64,000 nt of DNA from Nitrosopumilus sp. Its GTDB lineage: Archaea; Thermoproteota; Nitrososphaeria; Nitrososphaerales; Nitrosopumilaceae. The stretch covers positions 672,001-736,000 of the forward strand of contig OZ242041.1 of assembly GCA_965205215.1 (NCBI GenBank), read 5' to 3'. The notes under the pieces are model-generated. The model was given only the letters and a program-made list of their open reading frames with translations, was not told where the DNA came from and did not search any database. Position 1 is the stretch's first letter. Each line of letters begins with the position of its first letter. Below, in pieces: positions 8,471 to 29,740 of the stretch. Made by a program: the position numbers and the translations under genes.

Positions 8471-8638
8471 TCTTGGACATCCCGGACTGCTGTCTTGTGA
8501 CGCGTATTAAACGTTGACAAGAACGGGTTGTATGGACTCACCTATGTTAACCCTCGTGCGTAGTTGGCGTGTCTGTGTCGTTGCACTTCCATTCCGTGCG
8601 TGATTGGGTGGCCGGCGGTTTATAGCTTACGCTGGGGG

Positions 8639-10023
8639 TAGTTAGTTGCGCAACCCTGCCTAGAATTTCGAGATACGCCACTTTTGTGAGCTGTTTTGTG
8701 CCCCCAAGTAGAATCTTCTTCACACCGCGTCTTATGTGTGCATGACGTGATGCCCCATCAGCGATCAAGAAGATGGGGCTAACACATCAGCAACAGCATG
8801 TGCTCTCGGAGCGCGAATTTAAGCGGATTGCCGCACCGGCCGGTCCCCGTGCCCGCCTGCGGGGGAGGGCGCGCGGTTGACCTGCGGGGACGGCGGGGCG
8901 ATGAAGCGGAAGCGGAGGTCGCGGCCCGGGATGCCGCACGCGCAGAACGACGCCAGGTACGTGGCGACGGGGCGCGCGCTGGCGCTCGTCACAAGCCCGG
9001 ATGCGGGGGCGGAGCTGAGGCGTATGAACAGGGGGAAGAACGGCCGCCCGTACAAGTATCCGGAATCGCTCATAATGACGCTGGCGGGGTTCAGGAGCTA
9101 CTGCAGGCTCTCGTTTCGCGTATGCGAGGGATTTGCAGGGGGGCAGCTGGGCGGGGGGAGCGTGCCGCACTTTACCCAGATATGGAGGAGGATGAACGCG
9201 CTCGACGTCTCGGTCGGGGCCCGCGCCGTGTCGGTGCGCGGCAGGAACGGCGTGCTGAACCTGTCCATAGACGGCACCGGAATGAGCCCCAGCGGGCGCA
9301 GCGAGTACATCCGGTTCAGGCACAGGGTGGAGCACGGGTTCATCAGGTTCGTCATGGTGGTGGATACGGACACTAGGGAGATCCTCTCGTTCAGCATAAC
9401 GGACGAGACCACCGGCGAGGCGCCGCAGTTCAGGGATCTCACGCTCGAGGCCCTGGAGAACGCCGGGGTCGGCGCGGGCGCGGCAGGCCGGGTGGGGCGG
9501 GGGCCGGGGCCGGGGGCCACACCACGCGGCGGAGGGCCCGAGATAGTGATGAGGGCCGACGGCGGGTTCGACTCGCGCCCCATATTCGCATTCTGCGACA
9601 GGCTCGGGATCATACCGTACATCAGGGTGGGCATAAGCTCGGCCACGCGCTCGCGCGGCGTAAACAGGGCCAGGACCCGCGCCGTCCTCGACCAGCTCGG
9701 GGGAGGCATGCGCGATCCCCGGGAATTTGCAGAACTGACCAGGGACGAGAAGGAGGCAAACCGCAAAAAGTGGAAGAAGAGGGTCGGTTACGGCAAAAGA
9801 TGGCTGGTTGAGATTGTGATCTCGTCGTTCAAGAGGCTGTTCGGGGACTCCGTGCGTGCGGTACGCTGGAAGTACATCGCGCGGGAGATGACGCTCAAGG
9901 TGAACCTCTACAACATGATGCTGAGGGTCCAGAGGGAGGCAATGGCAGTGACATAGGGACAGTGCACCTGAACGCAATCATGGGATATGGGCATGCGGGA
10001 TGAGGGAGTTGCGCAACTAACTA
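8639..10023 (+). mobile_element. IS5-family element copy 1 (1385 bp)
   Basis: 16-bp TIR TAGTTAGTTGCGCAAC; 8-bp TSD GCTGGGGG at 8631-8638 and 10024-10031. Confidence 0.92.
8877..9956 (+). CDS. IS5-family DDE transposase
   Basis: GRPYKYP, SIDGTG, ADGGFDS, GYGKRWLVEIVISSFKRLFG motifs; start may be ATG 8901. Confidence 0.9.
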   Translation: MTCGDGGAMKRKRRSRPGMPHAQNDARYVATGRALALVTSPDAGAELRRMNRGKNGRPYKYPESLIMTLAGFRSYCRLSFRVCEGFAGGQLGGGSVPHFTQIWRRMNALDVSVGARAVSVRGRNGVLNLSIDGTGMSPSGRSEYIRFRHRVEHGFIRFVMVVDTDTREILSFSITDETTGEAPQFRDLTLEALENAGVGAGAAGRVGRGPGPGATPRGGGPEIVMRADGGFDSRPIFAFCDRLGIIPYIRVGISSATRSRGVNRARTRAVLDQLGGGMRDPREFAELTRDEKEANRKKWKKRVGYGKRWLVEIVISSFKRLFGDSVRAVRWKYIAREMTLKVNLYNMMLRVQREAMAVT

Positions 10024-10063
10024 GCTGGGGGTGGCAGCTGCCAAGACCGGGCATCCCGTAGGA

Positions 10064-11179
10064 TTACTGCCGCTTCCGGCCTGCCTTCTTGATCTTGTTC
10101 AGCTTGCGCTGGTACATTGCCTCGTTGCGTGACTTGTACGGTGTCTGGGTGCTCAGCATATGCCACATTATTGTGACCATCTTGTGCGCCACTGCCACTA
10201 TGCCGAGCGCATGCTTGTCCGCGTGCCGCCGCTTGACGGCCTCGTATACGAGTGCCATCTTCGGGTCGTGCATCACGGCCACCTGCGCGGCCTCGCACAT
10301 GGCCCAGTTTACCAAGCGGTTGGTGTTCTGCTTTTTGATGCGGTTCATCCGCGTCGAGTCGCCGGACTCGCGTACCATCGGGCAGAATCCCGCCATGGAG
10401 ACCAGCTTTTTCGGGCCCTTGAACCGCGTTATGCCGTCTATCTCCACTGCCATCAGCAGCGCGACGAACGGCCCGACGCCGGGCATGCTCATCAGCAGCC
10501 TGGCATCTTTGTTCTGCTCTGTCTCTGCAGTGAGGTGCCTGTCAGTATCCGACAGTGACTCTGTAAGGTACTGCATCTGCCTGACGTGCTTTTGCAGCAC
10601 GAACGTCTCGTTTGCGGTTCCGAGCTCGGTCGCCTCCAGCTGCCTGATGCCCTTGAGCGAGTACAGGTTTTTCGCCCCGATGCTTACGTTGTAGGCGTCA
10701 AGGATGCCGCGGATCCTGTTTATCACCTTGGTCCGGTCCTGGGTCAGCCTGACGTGGTGCCGTATCAGGGTCCTGATGCCGCGGACGTGCTTGGTCGGCA
10801 CGTGGCACGCGTCTATCATGCCGGACCGGAGGAGCACTGCAAGCTTGTGCGCATCCTCCCTGTCCGTCTTTTTTGCGCTCTTGGTGATCATCTTCAGCTT
10901 GTACGGGCTGGCCAGGAAGATGCGGACTCCAGCGTCCTCAAACGCCTCGTACGTGGTTCTCCACATGTTGGCGGTGGATTCGCAGACTGCACTGCATTCA
11001 CCCTTTTCCGCGCCGTACTTGCGCGCCATCTCCCGTGCGGCCTCCCTTGCGTCCCGTATCATGTTGGGGTACTGTCCCCTCTCGGCGACCTCCCCCATGG
11101 GATCCAGGACGCAGTAGTCACACTTTTTCTTACTGATGTCGATTCCTATGCTTGTGGTTGCTGTCATGTGTGTGTCCAT
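10064..11179 (-). CDS. IS110-family DEDD recombinase/transposase
   Basis: GIDISK, CESTA, KTDREDA (RuvC-like DEDD); PGVG and RESG catalytic Ser region. Confidence 0.95.
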   Translation of the reverse strand: MDTHMTATTSIGIDISKKKCDYCVLDPMGEVAERGQYPNMIRDAREAAREMARKYGAEKGECSAVCESTANMWRTTYEAFEDAGVRIFLASPYKLKMITKSAKKTDREDAHKLAVLLRSGMIDACHVPTKHVRGIRTLIRHHVRLTQDRTKVINRIRGILDAYNVSIGAKNLYSLKGIRQLEATELGTANETFVLQKHVRQMQYLTESLSDTDRHLTAETEQNKDARLLMSMPGVGPFVALLMAVEIDGITRFKGPKKLVSMAGFCPMVRESGDSTRMNRIKKQNTNRLVNWAMCEAAQVAVMHDPKMALVYEAVKRRHADKHALGIVAVAHKMVTIMWHMLSTQTPYKSRNEAMYQRKLNKIKKAGRKRQ

Positions 11180-11386
11180 TTTTTGTTCTCACCTCCTTTC
11201 GGATGTCTGGTTTTGACGGAACGGAAGCTGCAGTCACCTATCGGGGCGCGCAGCCCAGTTATACAGCAGCTCGGATTGCCCCATTCAGGTCGAAGAGTGC
11301 GCGGTCTGATTGTATTCCGTGTCCCATGAGTACAGAGGGGTCGCTCCATCACGCCCGTCACGACTAGAAGGGTTATCATCCAATCA
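11180..11386 (-). ncRNA. putative bridge/seek RNA region of IS110 copy A
   Basis: Reverse complement of 13033-13239, with the same target and donor matches. Confidence 0.6.
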
Positions 11387-11428
11387 GGTCGCCACATCTC
11401 ACGATTCGAGCGTATGCGAAGAACCGTC

Positions 11429-12963
11429 TCAGCATGCGGCGGCAGAAGGCGCCGCCGCTGCGGCCCGCACCGGCCGCTCGGCGCGTTCCGGGCAGTCGGG
11501 CGGCTTGAATATGCGCCAGTCGGGATCCTCGATCATGCGCTCCACCGCCATGCGCGGGAACATGCCCATCTTCTGGCACGTGCGCGCGACGGACACCAGC
11601 ACGGAGAACACGTGGCGTCCCTCGGGTTCTGACAGCTGGTGGCGCACGTTGCGGTGCAGCACTACGGTATCGCGTATCTCCAGCTCGGCGGCGTTGTTGT
11701 GGGGCGGCATGCCCGGATACCTCAGGAACGTGAACAGGTGCGGGGCGGCGCCCTCCAGCGTCTCGCGGAACCCGTGCCCTTTTTTGTAGCCCGACGCTAT
11801 GCGCAGCGCGGCCTTTTCGAGGTTCAGGCACTCGGTACTGTCAGCCGACTTGCGGTCCTTGATCCTCCCGTACAGGGAGAGCAGCCTGCGGTAGCACGAC
11901 AGGTCGTCCCCGCCGTTTCTTACGGCGTATTTCTCGGCCTCGCGCAGTATGTGGGCCCAGCAGCGCTGCCGGACCGGCAGCATGCCGTATACCGCATACC
12001 CGTCGGTGACGGCCGGCATGCCGAGCAGGCCGCCAAAGTGCAGCTCCAGCACGGCCGCGGCCCTGCTCGGGGCCGCCACGATATACGTGGCGTCCCCCGC
12101 CGTCGCCAGCCACACGTACCCGCGTTTGCCGTTCATCCTGACGACCGACTCGTCGAACTGCACGAACGCGGCGCGCGAGATACGCTCCAGGATGCCGCTG
12201 TACGCGGATCTGAGCAGGCCTCCCAGCGCCCTGCGCGCGTTCCAGACGGCGTTTGCCGACACCGAAAAGCCGTAGAGCGCCCGGAAATAGTACGATATGG
12301 TCGCGTCAGTCGACCTCTTGGCGTAGTATTCCAGTATGAACCCCAGGGCCCCCGGGCCGAACGACGTGCCGGGCAGCAGCCCGGGGGCCGGGGCGGTGCT
12401 GACCGCGCCGCACCTCCTGCAGAACCCGCGCTCCAGCACGTACGCGACCGTCTCGACGCGCCTGCTGCTTTCGTCCGGAAAGTCGTTTACGATTCTTGTG
12501 ACGGGGGCCGCGTACGCGAGGTGGCCGCGCCCGCAGTTCCGGCACCGGTACAGGCGCAGTCTCATCCTCCTAGAGGGCCTGTTGCCGTGGGACGCGCCCG
12601 CGTGCCCCTCCGGGGGCCCCTGCGCCTGCCCGCCGAACGCCCCTCCGGTTCAGGTCCGTCTTTCGCGCCGCCGTCCCCTCCGCGCCCCTCCTCTTCTGCA
12701 AGCCTCTTCCGGAACGCGTCGCGCTCCGCATTGTACATGGAACCCGTGGAGGACGGCGCGTTCGGATTCTCGTATTTGGCCAGCCTCCTGTCCTGTTCTT
12801 CAATGGTCTCCATAAGCAGGTCTATCTGCTCCTCAAGGCCTGCCCTTATCCTGTCACGCTCGGCCTCCACACGGGCGACCGCATCCTGCAGCCTCTTGAT
12901 CTCCGCCATCATCTTGGCCATCTCCCGGCGCAGCAGCGCCGTCTCGGAATCGCCCATGGACAA
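11429..12963 (-). pseudogene. IS66 transposase split by a frameshift at the G5 run 12612-12616
   Basis: Coiled coil plus NPNAPSS; after the shift PEGHAG, zinc finger, QFDES, TDGY, QRCWAHILR, NNAAELEIR. Confidence 0.88.
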
Positions 12964-13032
12964 TTCGCAGAATATATGATCTATAAGCTTGTCGGCCTAC
13001 CAAAACGACCAACAGAGTCACAGGCACGGACC

Positions 13033-13239
13033 TGATTGGATGATAACCCTTCTAGTCGTGACGGGCGTGATGGAGCGACCCCTCTGTACTCATGGGACAC
13101 GGAATACAATCAGACCGCGCACTCTTCGACCTGAATGGGGCAATCCGAGCTGCTGTATAACTGGGCTGCGCGCCCCGATAGGTGACTGCAGCTTCCGTTC
13201 CGTCAAAACCAGACATCCGAAAGGAGGTGAGAACAAAAA
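13033..13239 (+). ncRNA. putative bridge/seek RNA region of IS110 copy B
   Basis: Contains TGTACTCA (13085-92), CAATCA (13107-12), CGACCTGA (13127-34), ATAGGTGA (13178-85), matching target and donor halves; enclosing stem 13060-77/13191-204. Confidence 0.65.
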
Positions 13240-14355
13240 ATGGACACACACATGACAGCAACCACAAGCATAGGAATCGACATCAGTAAGAAAAAGTGTG
13301 ACTACTGCGTCCTGGATCCCATGGGGGAGGTCGCCGAGAGGGGACAGTACCCCAACATGATACGGGACGCAAGGGAGGCCGCACGGGAGATGGCGCGCAA
13401 GTACGGCGCGGAAAAGGGTGAATGCAGTGCAGTCTGCGAATCCACCGCCAACATGTGGAGAACCACGTACGAGGCGTTTGAGGACGCTGGAGTCCGCATC
13501 TTCCTGGCCAGCCCGTACAAGCTGAAGATGATCACCAAGAGCGCAAAAAAGACGGACAGGGAGGATGCGCACAAGCTTGCAGTGCTCCTCCGGTCCGGCA
13601 TGATAGACGCGTGCCACGTGCCGACCAAGCACGTCCGCGGCATCAGGACCCTGATACGGCACCACGTCAGGCTGACCCAGGACCGGACCAAGGTGATAAA
13701 CAGGATCCGCGGCATCCTTGACGCCTACAACGTAAGCATCGGGGCGAAAAACCTGTACTCGCTCAAGGGCATCAGGCAGCTGGAGGCGACCGAGCTCGGA
13801 ACCGCAAACGAGACGTTCGTGCTGCAAAAGCACGTCAGGCAGATGCAGTACCTTACAGAGTCACTGTCGGATACTGACAGGCACCTCACTGCAGAGACAG
13901 AGCAGAACAAAGATGCCAGGCTGCTGATGAGCATGCCCGGCGTCGGGCCGTTCGTCGCGCTGCTGATGGCAGTGGAGATAGACGGCATAACGCGGTTCAA
14001 GGGCCCGAAAAAGCTGGTCTCCATGGCGGGATTCTGCCCGATGGTACGCGAGTCCGGCGACTCGACGCGGATGAACCGCATCAAAAAGCAGAACACCAAC
14101 CGCTTGGTAAACTGGGCCATGTGCGAGGCCGCGCAGGTGGCCGTGATGCACGACCCGAAGATGGCACTCGTATACGAGGCCGTCAAGCGGCGGCACGCGG
14201 ACAAGCATGCGCTCGGCATAGTGGCAGTGGCGCACAAGATGGTCACAATAATGTGGCATATGCTGAGCACCCAGACACCGTACAAGTCACGCAACGAGGC
14301 AATGTACCAGCGCAAGCTGAACAAGATCAAGAAGGCAGGCCGGAAGCGGCAGTAA
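13240..14355 (+). CDS. IS110-family DEDD recombinase/transposase
   Basis: Identical protein to 10064-11179; GGAGGTGA RBS upstream. Confidence 0.95.
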   Translation: MDTHMTATTSIGIDISKKKCDYCVLDPMGEVAERGQYPNMIRDAREAAREMARKYGAEKGECSAVCESTANMWRTTYEAFEDAGVRIFLASPYKLKMITKSAKKTDREDAHKLAVLLRSGMIDACHVPTKHVRGIRTLIRHHVRLTQDRTKVINRIRGILDAYNVSIGAKNLYSLKGIRQLEATELGTANETFVLQKHVRQMQYLTESLSDTDRHLTAETEQNKDARLLMSMPGVGPFVALLMAVEIDGITRFKGPKKLVSMAGFCPMVRESGDSTRMNRIKKQNTNRLVNWAMCEAAQVAVMHDPKMALVYEAVKRRHADKHALGIVAVAHKMVTIMWHMLSTQTPYKSRNEAMYQRKLNKIKKAGRKRQ

Positions 14356-14395
14356 TCCTACGGGATGCCCGGTCTTGGCAGCTGCCACCCCCAGC

Positions 14396-15780
14396 TAGTT
14401 AGTTGCGCAACCCTGCCTAGAATTTCGAGATACGCCACTTTTGTGAGCTGTTTTGTGCCCCCAAGTAGAATCTTCTTCACACCGCGTCTTATGTGTGCAT
14501 GACGTGATGCCCCATCAGCGATCAAGAAGATGGGGCTAACACATCAGCAACAGCATGTGCTCTCGGAGCGCGAATTTAAGCGGATTGCCGCACCGGCCGG
14601 TCCCCGTGCCCGCCTGCGGGGGAGGGCGCGCGGTTGACCTGCGGGGACGGCGGGGCGATGAAGCGGAAGCGGAGGTCGCGGCCCGGGATGCCGCACGCGC
14701 AGAACGACGCCAGGTACGTGGCGACGGGGCGCGCGCTGGCGCTCGTCACAAGCCCGGATGCGGGGGCGGAGCTGAGGCGTATGAACAGGGGGAAGAACGG
14801 CCGCCCGTACAAGTATCCGGAATCGCTCATAATGACGCTGGCGGGGTTCAGGAGCTACTGCAGGCTCTCGTTTCGCGTATGCGAGGGATTTGCAGGGGGG
14901 CAGCTGGGCGGGGGGAGCGTGCCGCACTTTACCCAGATATGGAGGAGGATGAACGCGCTCGACGTCTCGGTCGGGGCCCGCGCCGTGTCGGTGCGCGGCA
15001 GGAACGGCGTGCTGAACCTGTCCATAGACGGCACCGGAATGAGCCCCAGCGGGCGCAGCGAGTACATCCGGTTCAGGCACAGGGTGGAGCACGGGTTCAT
15101 CAGGTTCGTCATGGTGGTGGATACGGACACTAGGGAGATCCTCTCGTTCAGCATAACGGACGAGACCACCGGCGAGGCGCCGCAGTTCAGGGATCTCACG
15201 CTCGAGGCCCTGGAGAACGCCGGGGTCGGCGCGGGCGCGGCAGGCCGGGTGGGGCGGGGGCCGGGGCCGGGGGCCACACCACGCGGCGGAGGGCCCGAGA
15301 TAGTGATGAGGGCCGACGGCGGGTTCGACTCGCGCCCCATATTCGCATTCTGCGACAGGCTCGGGATCATACCGTACATCAGGGTGGGCATAAGCTCGGC
15401 CACGCGCTCGCGCGGCGTAAACAGGGCCAGGACCCGCGCCGTCCTCGACCAGCTCGGGGGAGGCATGCGCGATCCCCGGGAATTTGCAGAACTGACCAGG
15501 GACGAGAAGGAGGCAAACCGCAAAAAGTGGAAGAAGAGGGTCGGTTACGGCAAAAGATGGCTGGTTGAGATTGTGATCTCGTCGTTCAAGAGGCTGTTCG
15601 GGGACTCCGTGCGTGCGGTACGCTGGAAGTACATCGCGCGGGAGATGACGCTCAAGGTGAACCTCTACAACATGATGCTGAGGGTCCAGAGGGAGGCAAT
15701 GGCAGTGACATAGGGACAGTGCACCTGAACGCAATCATGGGATATGGGCATGCGGGATGAGGGAGTTGCGCAACTAACTA
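14396..15780 (+). mobile_element. IS5-family element copy 2 (1385 bp)
   Basis: Same TIRs; TSD CCCCCAGC at 14388-14395 and 15781-15788. Confidence 0.92.
14634..15713 (+). CDS. IS5-family DDE transposase
   Basis: Identical protein to 8877-9956. Confidence 0.9.
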   Translation: MTCGDGGAMKRKRRSRPGMPHAQNDARYVATGRALALVTSPDAGAELRRMNRGKNGRPYKYPESLIMTLAGFRSYCRLSFRVCEGFAGGQLGGGSVPHFTQIWRRMNALDVSVGARAVSVRGRNGVLNLSIDGTGMSPSGRSEYIRFRHRVEHGFIRFVMVVDTDTREILSFSITDETTGEAPQFRDLTLEALENAGVGAGAAGRVGRGPGPGATPRGGGPEIVMRADGGFDSRPIFAFCDRLGIIPYIRVGISSATRSRGVNRARTRAVLDQLGGGMRDPREFAELTRDEKEANRKKWKKRVGYGKRWLVEIVISSFKRLFGDSVRAVRWKYIAREMTLKVNLYNMMLRVQREAMAVT

Positions 15781-15893
15781 CCCCCAGCGTAAGCTATAAA
15801 CCGCCGGCCACCCAATCACGCACGGAATGGAAGTGCAACGACACAGACACGCCAACTACGCACGAGGGTTAACATAGGTGAGTACATACAACG

Positions 15894-15978
15894 GGTTCCG
15901 TTGCTAATTCGTGACTCCTTTCAAAAAACAATCAGTTTCCATCCTTACCTGCGGAGGTCACAAATTCGCAACGGAACC
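15894..15978. mobile_element. 85-bp MITE with IS6-like terminal inverted repeats
   Basis: ~25-bp imperfect TIR GGTTCCGTTGC(T/G)AATT(C/T)GTGAC; resembles IS6-family GGTTCTGTTGC ends. Confidence 0.6.
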
Positions 15979-16025
15979 ACCTATCGCGGGAGCCGTGCAG
16001 GGCCGTGCCCTTGAGTCCCTCCGGC

Positions 16026-18323
16026 CTAGTGACAATAGCACCTGGCCGCGGCTACCTCTAGTACCTCTTTGGTCGTGAGTTCCCCGTCAACATAGTCTTG
16101 CATTGCGACATGCCACTCGCCTTCCTGTATCGCGCCGTCGCCGTTGCTGTCATACCGCTCTACCGGGGTACGCGGGTCGGGCTCGGGCTCGTCGCTTTCG
16201 GCTACCAGGCAGAACTGTTCGGTACATTCGATGACCCAGTCATCGCCGTACGTGGCTCTGTTCTTGTCATCTTTGGGTTTTTCCTGCTGCGCCTCCGCGG
16301 GCTCTGGCGCGACTACCGTGACCGTCCTGTTCTGCTGGACGGCCTGGGTGCCCGAGCTGTCGGCCACCCTGTAGTGCAGCGAGTACTCAGCGGCCACTGA
16401 CGTGTCCACGGTACCCGTGACGGTCACGTTGGCGGTTATGTTGCGGCCCGCGTGGTCGGTGGCCGCGTAGCCGGGCTCCTCCCACGCCGAGCCGAGCTGT
16501 ATGGTCATGTCGGGCGAGCCGGCCAGTGTGATCACCGGGGGCTGCGGCGGGTTCGGCGTGACTGTCTTTTGCTGCTGCTCCTCCTCCGCGGGCTCTGGCG
16601 CGACTACCGTGACCGTCCTGTTCTGCTGGACGGCCTGGGTGCCCGAGCTGTCGGCCACCCTGTAGTGCAGCGAGTACTCAGCGGCCACTGACGTGTCCAC
16701 GGTACCCGTGACGGTCACGTTGGCGGTTATGTTGCGGCCCGCGTGGTCGGTGGCCGCGTAGCCGGGCTCCTCCCACGCCGAGCCGAGCTGTATGGTCATG
16801 TCGGGCGAGCCGGCCAGTGTGATCACCGGGGGCTGCGGCGGGTTCGGCGTGACTGTCTTTTGCTGCTGCTCCTCCTCCGCGGGCTCTGGCGCGACTACCG
16901 TGACCGTCCTGTTCTGCTGGACGGCCTGGGTGCCCGAGCTGTCGGCCACCCTGTAGTGCAGCGAGTACTCAGCGGCCACTGACGTGTCCACGGTACCCGT
17001 GACGGTCACGTTGGCGGTTATGTTGCGGCCCGCGTGGTCGGTGGCCGCGTAGCCGGGCTCCTCCCACGCCGAGCCGAGCTGTATGGTCATGTCGGGCGAG
17101 CCGGCCAGTGTGATCACCGGGGGCTGCGGCGGGTTCGGCGTGACTGTCTTTTGCTGCTGCTCCTCCTCCGCGGGCTCTGGCGCGACTACCGTGACCGTCC
17201 TGTTCTGCTGGACGGCCTGGGTGCCCGAGCTGTCGGCCACCCTGTAGTGCAGCGAGTACTCAGCGGCCACTGACGTGTCCACGGTACCCGTGACGGTCAC
17301 GTTGGCGGTTATGTTGCGGCCCGCGTGGTCGGTGGCCGCGTAGCCGGGCTCCTCCCACGCCGAGCCGAGCTGTATGGTCATGTCGGGCGAGCCGGCCAGT
17401 GTGATCACCGGGGGCTGCGGCGGGTTCGGCGTGACTGTCTTTTGCTGCTGCTCCTCCTCCGCGGGCTCTGGCGCGACTACCGTGACCGTCCTGTTCTGCT
17501 GGACGGCCTGGGTGCCCGAGCTGTCGGCCACCCTGTAGTGCAGCGAGTACTCAGCGGCCACTGACGTGTCCACGGTACCCGTGACGGTCACGTTGGCGGT
17601 TATGTTGCGGCCCGCGTGGTCGGTGGCCGCGTAGCCGGGCTCCTCCCACGCCGAGCCGAGCTGTATGGTCATGTCGGGCGAGCCGGCCAGTGTGATCACC
17701 GGGGGCTGCGGCGGGTTCGGCGTGACTGTCTTTTGCTGCTGCTGCTGCTGCTGCTGCGCCTCCGCGGGCTCTGGCGCGACCACCTTGGGCTGCGGCGACT
17801 CCGCGGGAGGCGCGACGATGCACGCTTGGACGGTATCGGTCTGTGACCAGTCCATATCGGTGGCCTTCCAGTGCGCAGCCCTGCCGGGGCTGTCGGAGAA
17901 GGGAAACCTGTCGGCGCCAAAGACAAGCTCCAGGCCGTGTCGGTTCTGGATGGGCGTCTCGGTTGCAAATATCAGGTAATCCAGATCCATGTCGAGGTAC
18001 AGGTACTCTACGCCATAGTTGGCGCCCTCATAGTTAATGTGGCGGGGGGTGAGCCACTGGATGCAGGCGGCATCGTACCAGTACCAGCAGCCATGCGAGT
18101 TGCCCGCCTCGTACGTCACAAGGGTGGCGTTCCAGACGACGTCAAAGGCGCGGCCGTCGTCGGTGACGGGCACGCTGCAGGCGAAATTGCCGCTTTGAGC
18201 CGTTGGCGGGCCGTCCGAGTCACCGTCCGATTGCGCAAAGGCGTCCTCGACGGCCGTGACATTCGACAGGCCGTACGCCGCGACTGCCAAAAGGACGATC
18301 ATCGCACAGAGCCCGGGCTTCAT
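16026..18323 (-). CDS. secreted surface protein with five DUF5011/Ig-like repeats and C-terminal EF-hand/dockerin-like domain
   Basis: Signal peptide ending AFA; PVITLAG..WEEPGYAATD..G.VDTS...YSLHYRVADSSG repeats; YDSNGDGAIQ; ends ARCYCH. Confidence 0.85.
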   Translation of the reverse strand: MKPGLCAMIVLLAVAAYGLSNVTAVEDAFAQSDGDSDGPPTAQSGNFACSVPVTDDGRAFDVVWNATLVTYEAGNSHGCWYWYDAACIQWLTPRHINYEGANYGVEYLYLDMDLDYLIFATETPIQNRHGLELVFGADRFPFSDSPGRAAHWKATDMDWSQTDTVQACIVAPPAESPQPKVVAPEPAEAQQQQQQQQKTVTPNPPQPPVITLAGSPDMTIQLGSAWEEPGYAATDHAGRNITANVTVTGTVDTSVAAEYSLHYRVADSSGTQAVQQNRTVTVVAPEPAEEEQQQKTVTPNPPQPPVITLAGSPDMTIQLGSAWEEPGYAATDHAGRNITANVTVTGTVDTSVAAEYSLHYRVADSSGTQAVQQNRTVTVVAPEPAEEEQQQKTVTPNPPQPPVITLAGSPDMTIQLGSAWEEPGYAATDHAGRNITANVTVTGTVDTSVAAEYSLHYRVADSSGTQAVQQNRTVTVVAPEPAEEEQQQKTVTPNPPQPPVITLAGSPDMTIQLGSAWEEPGYAATDHAGRNITANVTVTGTVDTSVAAEYSLHYRVADSSGTQAVQQNRTVTVVAPEPAEEEQQQKTVTPNPPQPPVITLAGSPDMTIQLGSAWEEPGYAATDHAGRNITANVTVTGTVDTSVAAEYSLHYRVADSSGTQAVQQNRTVTVVAPEPAEAQQEKPKDDKNRATYGDDWVIECTEQFCLVAESDEPEPDPRTPVERYDSNGDGAIQEGEWHVAMQDYVDGELTTKEVLEVAAARCYCH
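16292..17779. repeat. 291-bp tandem repeat, five near-perfect copies
   Basis: Units recur at 16299, 16590, 16881, 17172, 17463; (CAG)n poly-Q linker. Confidence 0.95.
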
Positions 18324-18334
18324 CGGTGTTCGAC

Positions 18335-18355
18335 GGGGGGGGGGGGGTATAATAA
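18335..18355 (-). promoter_or_regulatory. TATA box followed by a C13 tract upstream of the surface protein gene
   Basis: Minus strand reads TTATTATA-C13-GTCGAACACCG-ATG; TATA about 24 nt from ATG. Confidence 0.55.
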
Positions 18356-18662
18356 CCTTAACCAATAATTCGAGAAAATATGTACAAACATTAACTATTG
18401 GACAGATCAAATTGGCATATGTTTGGCAGCCTTTCTGCCGGGTACCGGGTGGGTTCTGGCCCCGAATGGGGATTTTTTGGATTACAAGGCGGCCGGATCT
18501 GCGGGTGTTGGCCGGTCCGGGGCCCTGCCGGTGCCCGGGCGCCCGACACCCGCGAGGCGCCCGCCGCGGGCGGCCTGCCGTGCGCCCCGGTTTTCACGGT
18601 ACATGGCAACCCCCCCACCGTCCTTCGGGAACGGTGCCGGATTCGGCATGATCCTGTCCGCT

Positions 18663-19584: not shown

Positions 19585-20426
19585 CACTTGTGTAACCCCT
19601 CAGACATGATTGGCGCGACTGTCGCCGCACTTCCATTCCGTGCGCGGTTGGGTGGCCGGCGGTTTGTGGATTACACGGGGGGGGGGGGTGGCAGCTGCCG
19701 GGATCGGGCATCCCGCAGGATTGCCGCCGCCCCCGGCCCGCCCCCTTGATCTTGTTCAGCTTGCGCCGGTACATTGCCCCGTTGCGTGGCCCGTACGGTG
19801 TCCCGGTGCCGCGGACGCGCCCGGTCGGCACGCGGCACGCGTCTATCATGCCGGACCGGAGGGGCACCGCAAGCCTGCGCGCGTCCTCCCCGTCCGTCTT
19901 TTTTGCGCTCCCTGTGATCATCTTCAGCCTGTACGGGCTGGCCGGGGGATGCGCGCCCCCGCGTCCCCAAACGCCTCGTGCGTGGCACGCCACATGCCGG
20001 CGGCGGACACACAGACTGCCCCGCATCCTCCATTTTTCGCGCCGTACCTGCGCGCCATCCCCCGCGCCGCCCGTCCCGCGCCCCGCATCGCGTTGTGGTA
20101 CCGCCCACTCTCGACGGCCACCCCCCCCGGGATCCGGGGCGCAACAGTCGCGCTTTTTCTTGCTGATGTCGATTCCTGTGCTTGCGGTTGCTGCCATGCG
20201 CGCGTGTCCATTTTTTGTCCTCGCCTCCCCTAGAATGCCTGGTTTTAACTGAACGGAAGCTGCGGCCACCTATCGGGGGCGCGCAGCCCTGCCATGCAGC
20301 AGCCCGGATTGCCCCATTCGGGTCCGGGAGTGCGCGGCCTGGCCGTATTCCGTGCCCCGTGAGTCCGGAGGGGTCGCTCCACCACGCCCGTCACGACGGG
20401 GGGGGGGGGAGGTTGTCATCCAATCA
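19585..20426 (-). mobile_element. decayed, internally deleted IS110 copy lacking the IS5 insertion
   Basis: Aligns to both ends of copy A; about 630 bp of the transposase missing; frameshifts. Confidence 0.9.
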
Positions 20427-29166: not shown

Positions 29167-29740
29167 GCCGGACGGACTCAAAGGCACGGCCCCGGGCGGC
29201 TCCCGCGAATCAGGCTGCCGCATTACAAAGGGGAAGCGGCGCCGCCCGCAACCTTCCGAGTACGCCGGGAGGCGCCGTGCTAGCGGCATGGCACCGCGTG
29301 ACAAACTCGCCGGGACAGCCTACGGCGGGACGAGCGCTTCGCGGGCGCAATTCCTTCCGAGCAACCCCCGGCGACGACATCGTTTGGGATACTCCCGGGC
29401 CGCCGGACATGCAGGCACGGACCGGCGCGGTCCCGCCTGCCCCGTGATCTCCCCGGGGATGTTCCCCGGCGCGGCAAGACCGGGCTGCACCCCTGCAGGA
29501 TCCCCCCCCCTCCACCCCGCCGGCGCCTCCCGTGCATCCTCCATGGGCCAGATCGCTCGTGGGACGGATCCAAAGGCCGCGCCTTGATCTTGGCCCGTTC
29601 GCTCATTTTCCTACGTTGTCCGGGTTCGACCTGGGCCCGTACACGATCACGCCTGCCGCCCAACGGACCCGCATTCAGCGTCACGGGACGTAGCACCGGG
29701 ACTCCTAGGATCCACGCTTCGCGGAATTCGAATCGGGCCG

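Follow-up and report, generated by a model that had tools for sequence, protein, structure and literature searches.

In a 64,000-nt stretch of a Nitrosopumilus sp. genome (assembly GCA_965205215.1, contig OZ242041.1, positions 672,001 to 736,000 of the forward strand; hereafter the window, with positions counted from its first letter), an IS110-family insertion sequence (IS) carries a non-coding left end directly upstream of its recombinase gene. On comparative grounds we consider it highly probable that this left end encodes a bridge (seek) RNA of about 140 nt, with two loops and read with an IS1111-like guide order on the left side of the element. The boundaries of the element, its core and its target are seen directly, as are a conserved structure with compensatory changes and the covariation of the guides with the flanks and ends; beyond these we infer transcription, protein binding, a circular intermediate and current activity. 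The bridge-RNA mechanism has been known since 2024 and is unchanged by this case, and the recombinase family is already named “RNA-guided” by NCBI. Both IS110 and IS1111 elements are described as using guide RNAs, with the order of top- and bottom-strand matches reversed between the two groups (PMC11208160; PMC11187229).

In the mechanism we propose, an outer helix (P1) would enclose two internal loops. Loop 1, closed by helix P2 and carrying P3, would read the target, its 5' strand (13083-93) pairing with the top strand right of the core and its 3' strand (13125-36) with the bottom strand left of the core. Loop 2, closed by P4 and carrying P5, would read the element's own joined ends, its 3' strand (13176-87) pairing with the right end plus the core and its 5' strand, in the family, with the initial bases of the left end. 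On the model of IS621 and ISEc11, this RNA would be bound by the DEDD/serine recombinase whose gene follows directly, and strand exchange would occur at the TG shared by a circular form, in which the right end (RE) and the left end (LE) are joined as RE-TG-LE, and the site CGACC-TG-AGTACA. The element is in this sense a candidate programmable recombinase.

Element ends, core and target

An IS110-family element is present in each terminal repeat of a single IS66 element, in mirror orientation, and the two copies (A and B) form a 1383-nt inverted repeat of 100% identity. The inverted repeat, cmsearch and the junctions place copy A at 8541-11384 on the minus strand, with an intruding IS at 8639-10023, a recombinase gene at 10064-11179 and a bridge RNA at 11212-11352. 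Copy B lies on the plus strand, and its LE (205 nt, 13035-13239) runs from the meeting point of the 100% inverted repeat and IS66 homology to the ATG of the recombinase gene. Its RE can be seen only once a 1385-bp IS is removed, because this IS (14396-15780) splits it into a 40-nt part that reaches up to the intruder (14356-14395) and a 90-nt part (15789-15878), which was aligned to the uninterrupted relative L105, contains the right-hand subterminal repeat (AGGGTTAACAT, 15865-75) and ends in ATAGG.

The left junction of copy B (13026-13042) reads ...ACGGACC-TGA-TTGGATG and the right one (15871-15889) ...AACATAGG-TGA-GTACATAC; on the minus strand, those of copy A read GGCGACC-TGA-TTGG and CATAGG-TGA-GTCCATAC. 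These junctions agree with the description in the initial annotation. With the intruder taken out, copy B becomes ACGGACC-TG-[ATTGGATGATAACCC ... GAGGGTTAACATAGG]-TG-AGTACATAC and copy A GGCGACC-TG-[...]-TG-AGTCCATAC.

Comparison of junctions in eight multi-copy families puts the core dinucleotide TG of copy B's left junction at 13033-13034, with the A at 13035 as element base 1. On the other side, the core TG and the remaining 9 bp of the IS66 right tip (AGTACATAC) occupy 15879-15889 and are followed by the IS66 duplication AACGGGTT. The TG thus found at 13033-34 and 15879-80 occurs once in intact IS66 ends, and there is no other duplication. Five uninterrupted IS66 relatives, 90% identical, are found elsewhere in the window's genome; their ends read ...GACGTGAGTCCATAC and their right ends ...GGACGTGAGTCCATAC, with TG(A) once at the insertion place, which means that the element inserted 9 bp plus the core from the IS66 tip with no further duplication. 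The proposal that an IS66 terminal repeat is the target is supported, and the two repeats were hit in mirror orientation because the site is the terminal repeat of one IS66 variant in this genome. A core of up to 3 nt (TGA) had also been suggested and does not hold, since the core is TG and its third base, A, is merely common to element base 1 and the right half of this target.

The subterminal inverted repeats are 11 bp long and pair at 10/11 positions, ATGATAACCCT at 13040-13050 with AGGGTTAACAT at 15865-15875, and relatives keep the left motif as ATG(A/T)TAA... The left repeat may double as a promoter box rich in A and T, situated about 25 nt upstream of P1.

Structure and guides of the probable leader RNA

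For comparison we fetched 183 loci, the named ones being mostly metagenome-assembled genomes (MAGs) labelled Nitrosopumilaceae, Nitrosopumilus, Cenarchaeum and Nitrososphaerales. Element ends were defined from the copies of multi-copy families in several genomes, and a covariance model (R1) was built from 29 leaders; its E-values are rough, the calibration having been shortened. R1 matches 84 places in 95 sources, all three copies of the window included, and at E<=1e-6 it is found in 18 of the 151 genomes sampled in the order (13 of the 103 of good quality). The window's own genome holds 5 matches, the fifth of which (G000:C1:1576774-1576895, minus strand) is weaker at 71 bits; at its position BLAST aligns the element over a short length only and reports no full match to the recombinase, and the locus is perhaps a remnant or an orphan.

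In copy B the bridge RNA, as matched by the covariance model (cmsearch, 112.8 bits) and supported by RNAalifold and pair counts, spans 141 nt on the plus strand (13067-13207). RNAalifold on the 29 leaders gives five helices with 27 consensus pairs, and compensatory changes occur in 18 of these. The helices fall at 13070-77/13196-203 (P1), 13079-82/13137-40 (P2), 13094-96/13121-24 (P3, with a clade-specific enlargement between its strands), 13147-53/13188-95 (P4) and 13163-66/13172-75 (P5), leaving internal loop 1 (13083-93 + 13125-36) and internal loop 2 (13154-62 + 13176-87), a two-loop architecture like that described for bridge RNAs (PMC11208160). Of the cells in this alignment, 95.4% are paired, versus 84.1% in column shuffles (0/500 reached the observed value), and sliding the partners by 1-3 columns leaves 33-51%; P4 is uninformative either way because it is nearly invariant. 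The outer stem originally drawn at 13060-77/13191-204 is partly right, the conserved, covarying helix being P1.

The window leader is plainly homologous, by alignment, to the leaders of multi-copy relatives, with the shared scaffold GATGGATCG-ACCCC-T[8 variable]A-hairpin-T[7 variable]TGAAT-GGGG-CAATCC-GAGCTGC-[9 nt]-hairpin-TGATAG(G/A)TG[3 nt]-GCAGCTTC-CGATCCGTC. One relative (L124:2316-2456) has a run of G and a GA-rich insertion of about 18 nt in the linker between the loops, its bridge RNA being otherwise normal. With the five-helix, two-loop fold, the compensatory changes and the guide covariation described below, the sequence comparison supports the original identification of the leader as a putative bispecific guide (bridge/seek) RNA.

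The 5' strand of loop 1 carries the right target guide (RTG, TCTGTACTCAT, 13083-13093), the reverse complement of TG-AGTACA(GA), whose TCTGTACTCA (13083-92) matches the flank at 7/8 positions in copy B and 6/8 in copy A. The 3' strand carries the left target guide (LTG, TTCGACC-TG-AAT, 13125-13136) in the same sense as the left flank plus core, TTCGACC-TG (13125-33) matching at 4/7 positions in copy B and 5/7 in copy A. In loop 2, the left donor guide (LDG, CGATAGG-TG-ACT, 13176-13187) forms the 3' strand in the same sense as the right end ...ATAGG plus core, and its ATAGG-TG (13178-84) matches the right end at 5/5; the 3 nt after the core in this strand, compared by eye with the starts of the right target and right donor, gave no consistent pattern. 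The 5' strand of loop 2 (TGTATAACT, 13154-13162) is the family's right donor guide (RDG) position and fits the element's own left end poorly.

All of the short strings that the initial annotation had named lie where it placed them: TGTACTCA at 13085-92, CAATCA at 13107-12, CGACCTGA at 13127-34, CAATC at 13141-45 and ATAGGTGA at 13178-85. Its assignment of four half-site guides stands for the RTG (TGTACTCA), the LTG (CGACCTGA) and the LDG (ATAGGTGA), which occupy homologous guide positions, and fails for CAATCA, which lies off the family RDG position (13154-62). The weaker CAATC, also put forward as a guide, is part of a conserved linker (GGGGCAATCCGAGC / GGGGCAATCC) kept across the family whatever the left end reads. 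When the 204-nt leader (13036-13239) was shuffled 20,000 times with dinucleotides preserved and scored for core-anchored matches, the left target 8-mer was reached in 529 shuffles, the right target 8-mer in 162, the left donor 8-mer in 40 and the right donor 6-mer CAATCA in 784, and all three 8-mers jointly in none (0/20,000). The joint occurrence of the 8-mers is therefore far beyond chance, whereas that of CAATCA alone (about 4%) is not.

Covariation of leaders with their targets across homologues had been named as the decisive check, and it is positive. Loop strands were taken from the R1 alignment, element ends were located independently by the subterminal repeat motifs, and the guides were then compared with flanks and ends. 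The LTG agrees with the 7 nt left of its own core at 4.5/7 positions, versus 2.0 for other guide families (48 distinct guides), and the reverse complement of the RTG with the 8 nt right of the core at 4.9/8 versus 2.3 (42 distinct guides). On the donor side, the LDG matches the last 5 nt of the right end at 4.85/5 versus 4.2 (22 distinct guides), and the first 5 nt of the RDG match left-end positions 2-6 at 4.0/5 versus 3.0 (29 distinct guides). For each of the four guides, the observed mean was reached by 0 of 10,000 permutations. The flank matches are the stronger evidence because they come from independent insertions.

The agreement is striking in some single loci. The RTG reads TGTCTTCCCA where the flank is TG-GGAAGACT (L133), TATCGGATCA where it is TG-ATCCGATC (L165) and TACCTAAACA where it is TG-TTTAGGTC (L163), and in L017 an LTG of TTGTTGTTG-TG accompanies the flank TTGTTGTTGT-TG. 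The LDG likewise shifts with the right end in relatives (ATAGA-TG, ATGGA-TG, ATAGG-AG). The core is TG in most families and AG in family F2 and in L113 and L170, where the LTG (..TAGA), the LDG (..GGAG) and both junctions are altered jointly; from this joint change we conclude that the core is a dinucleotide. In L127 and L132 (about 2300-2320) the left end is without its first 8 nt (AACACATG), apparently deleted between two TG, so that the right-donor sequence is lost with the bridge RNA still intact.

Natural re-targeting is visible in two cases. The window itself contains a decayed third IS110 copy (19590-20425, minus strand), with a bridge RNA at 20244-20385 whose RTG reads CGGACTCA and whose LTG (GGACCCGA) contains GGACC(C)GA. 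It is flanked on the left by GTGGACC-TG, which agrees with its own LTG at 5/7 positions and better than with the LTG of the intact copies. A relative about 94% identical to the window element occurs in contigs from two public runs of one sample of another organism (X3 and X4) without the intruding IS, position 14386 being joined to 15780 with 1393 nt skipped. It differs at 5 of 10 RTG positions (13084, 86, 88, 89 and 90), its right flank lying outside the contigs, and its LTG has C>T at 13130, matching its own left flank ...AAGATC-TG. The guide changes in this relative and in the decayed copy are what one would expect if guides set in a constant scaffold were programmable.

Competing readings and contrary evidence

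Several observations weigh against the bridge-RNA reading. The window's RDG, TGTAT (13154-58), matches its own left end, TTGGA, at 2/5, the lowest of 34 distinct RDG/left-end combinations, and the fit is 3 of 5 in L105, L106 and the decayed copy; such a simple match count may mislead, because the RDG of IS621 is reported to pair discontiguously (PMC11208160). The flanks of some relatives misfit the RTG, as in L105 (3/8, with AG for TG at the right junction). The permutations count related elements as independent units, and the donor-side covariation could partly reflect shared descent. The minimum free energy of the window leader (-60.2 kcal/mol, z = -0.12) is no better than that of shuffles, and the corresponding structure is unlike the comparative one.

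Whether the element is mobile today is also uncertain, as the right end of each intact copy is interrupted by a foreign IS. Near-cognate genomic sites are empty, among them five IS66 left repeats (GCGACC-TG-AGTCTATAC) at 406340, 872196, 873855, 1628106 and 1655733, and two non-IS sites with 11-12 contiguous matching bases (CGACCTGAGTAC at 1835372 and GACCTGAGTAC at 29562). With such good guide matches empty elsewhere in the genome, transposition must be rare or have stopped. No RE-LE circle joint was seen in the contigs of four runs, although contigs drop rare forms, and among the listed runs none of RNA covered 13000-14395. An unoccupied pair of IS66-like ends (GGACC-TG-AGTGCATAC) lies about 280 bp apart at 169941/170204 and is possibly a miniature inverted-repeat transposable element (MITE).

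The poor fit of the window's RDG gives room to an alternative that we regard as unlikely, in which CAATCA (13107-12) is the true right donor guide, either in an interleaved order RTG-RDG-LTG-LDG or as a third DNA-reading site in an enlarged P3 of the target loop. CAATCA is complementary to TG-ATTG, that is, to the core and the first four left-end bases. It lies in the 12-nt apical loop (AAUACAAUCAGA) of the P3 enlargement (13097-13120), an insertion that 26 of the 29 aligned leaders lack and that is confined to the sub-clade in which the canonical RDG no longer fits the left end, and L105 retains AATCA against its end TGATTAG. However, P3 is short in those other 26 leaders and leaves no room for a guide, and a 6-mer of this type already arises in the 784 shuffled leaders counted above. 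The CAATCA type of enlargement is common to the window, L105 and the decayed copy only; L106, a relative at 65% identity, has the same poor RDG fit with a different P3 insertion from which the motif is absent, and in L105 the left-end G>A goes without compensation. A longer 7-mer, CCAATCA, occurs in the right end (15811-17) and does not follow the left end in L105 or the decayed copy, a sign that matches of this kind arise readily. The idea that this 7-mer serves as the right donor guide, on a transcript running across the junction, was dropped, its letters differing in L105 and the decayed copy, whose left ends are not matchingly changed. The interleaved order, which the initial annotation had raised, is rejected because CAATCA is a clade-specific P3 loop and CAATC a conserved linker; loop 1 holds RTG followed by LTG, and loop 2 RDG followed by LDG. 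A related history to which we assign little probability is that the bridge RNA changed sides (downstream in distant relatives, upstream in this clade, with the IS1111 guide order and repeats kept), that the RDG decayed and that a CAAUCA guide took over the left end; if true, the bridge RNA would read DNA at a third site.

We find it scarcely credible that the leader is only a cis-acting 5' untranslated region (UTR) or a protein-binding DNA region, with the short identities due to chance or to end repeats at the DNA level. The conserved GGAGGTGA before the ATG does make the leader part of the mRNA region, the thermodynamic folding signal is absent, and a search of Rfam 15 at E<=10 over window positions 9000-16000 gave no fitting family, with chance matches to SNORA76 and PYLIS_2 inside the IS66 gene. 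Yet neither DNA repeats nor a UTR can explain two hypervariable loop strands that track the host flanks of independent insertions, nor can they explain the change from TG to AG in both loops and both junctions. The helices are moreover maintained by compensatory changes, and a role as 5' UTR is impossible for the copies of this RNA that relatives carry on the downstream side of the gene.

Subgroup placement, the transposon nest and meaning

The recombinase gene (13240-14355, plus strand) encodes 371 aa with a DEDD RuvC-like domain (PF01548, 4e-26) and a Tnp domain (PF02371, 7e-21), and the protein scores 227.8 bits against NCBIfam NF033542, “IS110 family RNA-guided transposase” (cut-off 140). 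Residues D14, E67, D106, D109 and S272-G273 align with conserved residues of IS621/ISCro4, within the motifs IGID, CES, KKTDxxDA and ESG, and the DEDD and Ser residues are presumably catalytic. Similarity to IS621/ISCro4 is otherwise weak (E 1e-11 to 1e-12, mainly residues 11-182). Relatives are graded from 90% down to about 30% identity, and the closest named ones in the plasmid collection are ISHvo9/ISHvo10-type transposases (32-34% identity), which are likewise archaeal IS110-family transposases, here from haloarchaea. In NCBIfam the recombinase also has a weak match, below threshold, to the TIGR-Tas RNA-guided endonuclease family (24 bits, E 3e-5, residues 136-333), in keeping with the kinship reported for Nop-like domains. 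As an IS1111 marker, the motif GL-P----S(T)G (PMC11187229) was dropped: it is present in the family consensus, but IS621/ISCro4 also have AGLTP....ESG in the alignment, and the window protein has GFCP.

The element resembles the IS1111 group (ISEc11, ISKpn4, ISPa11; IS4321/IS5075) in its subterminal repeats, whose 11 bp fall within that group's range of 7-17 bp, and in its guide order. The RTG (13083-93) precedes the LTG (13125-36) here and across the alignment, so that the top-strand-complementary guide lies 5' of the bottom-strand-complementary one, an order given for IS1111-family seekRNAs and the reverse of that of ISEc21 (PMC11187229). Further likenesses are the lack of target duplication beyond the core and the insertion into another transposon's terminal inverted repeat at a fixed position and orientation, with mirror hits. 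IS4321 and IS5075 reportedly target the terminal repeats of Tn21-family transposons (Partridge and Hall 2003); the IS4321 transposase is 23% identical to the window recombinase over residues 80-348. The element differs from the group in having its RNA, and the longer of its two non-coding ends, on the upstream side (LE 205 nt vs RE 130 nt) and in its thaumarchaeal host. Siddiquee et al. (PMC11187229) list upstream exceptions, namely ISMtsp17 and, with two long ends, ISHvo10 and ISAcp5, which are listed with no analysis of their RNAs. The combination of IS1111-type ends with an upstream RNA, noted at the outset, is thus confirmed by the repeat and the guide order.

With IS621/ISCro4 the element shares an RNA in the left end upstream of the recombinase, two internal loops of which the first is for the target and the second for the donor, a dinucleotide core included in the guides, and a DEDD RuvC-like domain followed by a Tnp domain with serine. 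It departs from these narrow IS110 elements in its weakly similar protein, its TG core (vs CT), its 11-bp rather than 2-3-bp repeats and its guide order, each loop of IS621 being described as having its L guide on the 5' side and its R guide on the 3' side (PMC11208160) and the window element having them reversed.

More distant relatives of the window recombinase carry the same RNA family downstream of the gene, as IS1111 elements do. R1 matches directly after the recombinase at 8 metagenome loci at E<=0.002, with 2 more weak, and 7/7 of these downstream matches were confirmed with filters off; the recombinases concerned are 29-32% identical to that of the window (the truncated L087 match, at 39%, lies outside these figures). 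The LDG of these relatives gives an 8-9-nt same-sense match to the right end in 7/7, and the RTG an exact match of at least 6 nt at the expected place in 3/7 (9 nt in L062), the latter being a weak test. A quick, unrooted IQ-TREE tree of 64 recombinase rows was made with no IS621-type row, leaving out 57 of 184 loci without a near full-length open reading frame (ORF), L001 (a duplicate of L012) and members at least 80% identical to a kept row. One side of this tree holds all 29 upstream-RNA rows and 4 rows without an R1 match, 3 of which are cut by contig ends; the other is made up of the 7 downstream-RNA rows, 24 that R1 does not match, ISHvo9, and IS4321, whose branch is very long. The ISHvo9 locus (L185) gave no R1 match, and ISHvo9 groups with the rows lacking one, opposite the window's clade. 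By this split, a single gain or a single loss accounts for the upstream position in this sample, and the unrooted tree does not tell which of the two it was.

The window presents a three-level transposon nest, with a DDE_Tnp_1 IS inside the IS110-family copies inside one IS66 element. The IS66-family host body (11385-13032, minus strand) encodes a transposase at 11429-12565 (PF03050), both of its terminal repeats are targets, and its 8-bp duplication AACGGGTT is intact at 8522-29 and 15890-97. In another MAG (L152:1700-1760), a related IS110 element is preceded, at a distance of about 60 nt, by an IS66-type end that is uninterrupted (GTATGGACTCAGGTCGCC), which points to a recurring IS110-IS66 association.

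The intruding 1385-bp IS in copy B (14396-15780, plus strand; DDE_Tnp_1 transposase at 14634-15713), which is outside the bridge system, has 16-bp terminal repeats and an 8-bp duplication, CCCCCAGC (14388-95 and 15781-88). Identical copies of it sit at the same nucleotide of both IS110 copies (8639-10023 and 14396-15780) with the same 8-bp duplication and in opposite orientation relative to the IS110 element. The whole genome holds just these two copies, both inside IS110 copies, which would point to movement of the composite as one unit; their opposite orientations oppose this. Unitig ends from runs X1 and X2 show the intruder in both orientations beside the IS110 right end, so an assembly error is probably not the cause, and the opposite orientations are explained neither by composite copying nor by inverted-repeat recombination.

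Relative to the intact copies, the decayed third copy shows mostly A/T->G/C changes and lengthened runs of C or G (one, at about 20400, has 12 C), which suggests strongly directional decay of dead DNA in this genome. Further along the window, a 794-aa ORF (16026-18410, minus strand) with at least 5 near-identical tandem repeats of about 97 aa and Pro/Glu/Gln-rich linkers is probably a secreted surface protein.

Bridge/seek RNAs are a young class of programmable recombination guides, and to our knowledge functional work has been done almost entirely on bacterial IS621-like and a few IS1111-like elements. A 2026 preprint predicts 32,190 bridge RNAs with 86 models from bacterial and archaeal intergenic DNA (10.64898/2026.10.21.760802). 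Our literature search found no paper on this thaumarchaeal family or on an IS1111-order RNA in a left end, although Supplementary Table 5/Data 2 of Durrant and the 86 preprint models may already contain the family. 

The bridge-RNA reading accounts for the three-level nest in this genome. It also documents, with strong comparative support from sequence, a whole clade of putative guide RNAs in ammonia-oxidiser-type archaea (MAGs labelled Nitrosopumilaceae, Cenarchaeum and Nitrososphaerales), whose guides are directly readable, whose natural re-targeting is visible and whose architecture mixes two described subgroups. The occurrence of one RNA family on the upstream side in this clade and on the downstream side in its relatives fits the idea, put forward by Durrant et al., of the RNA moving between element ends. 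The interest lies mainly in this switch of sides and in the archaeal orthologues: upstream and downstream relatives would form matched natural pairs for effects of RNA position, such as expression from the circle junction or coupling to recombinase translation, and the clade would supply orthologues from mesophilic archaea for testing as tools.

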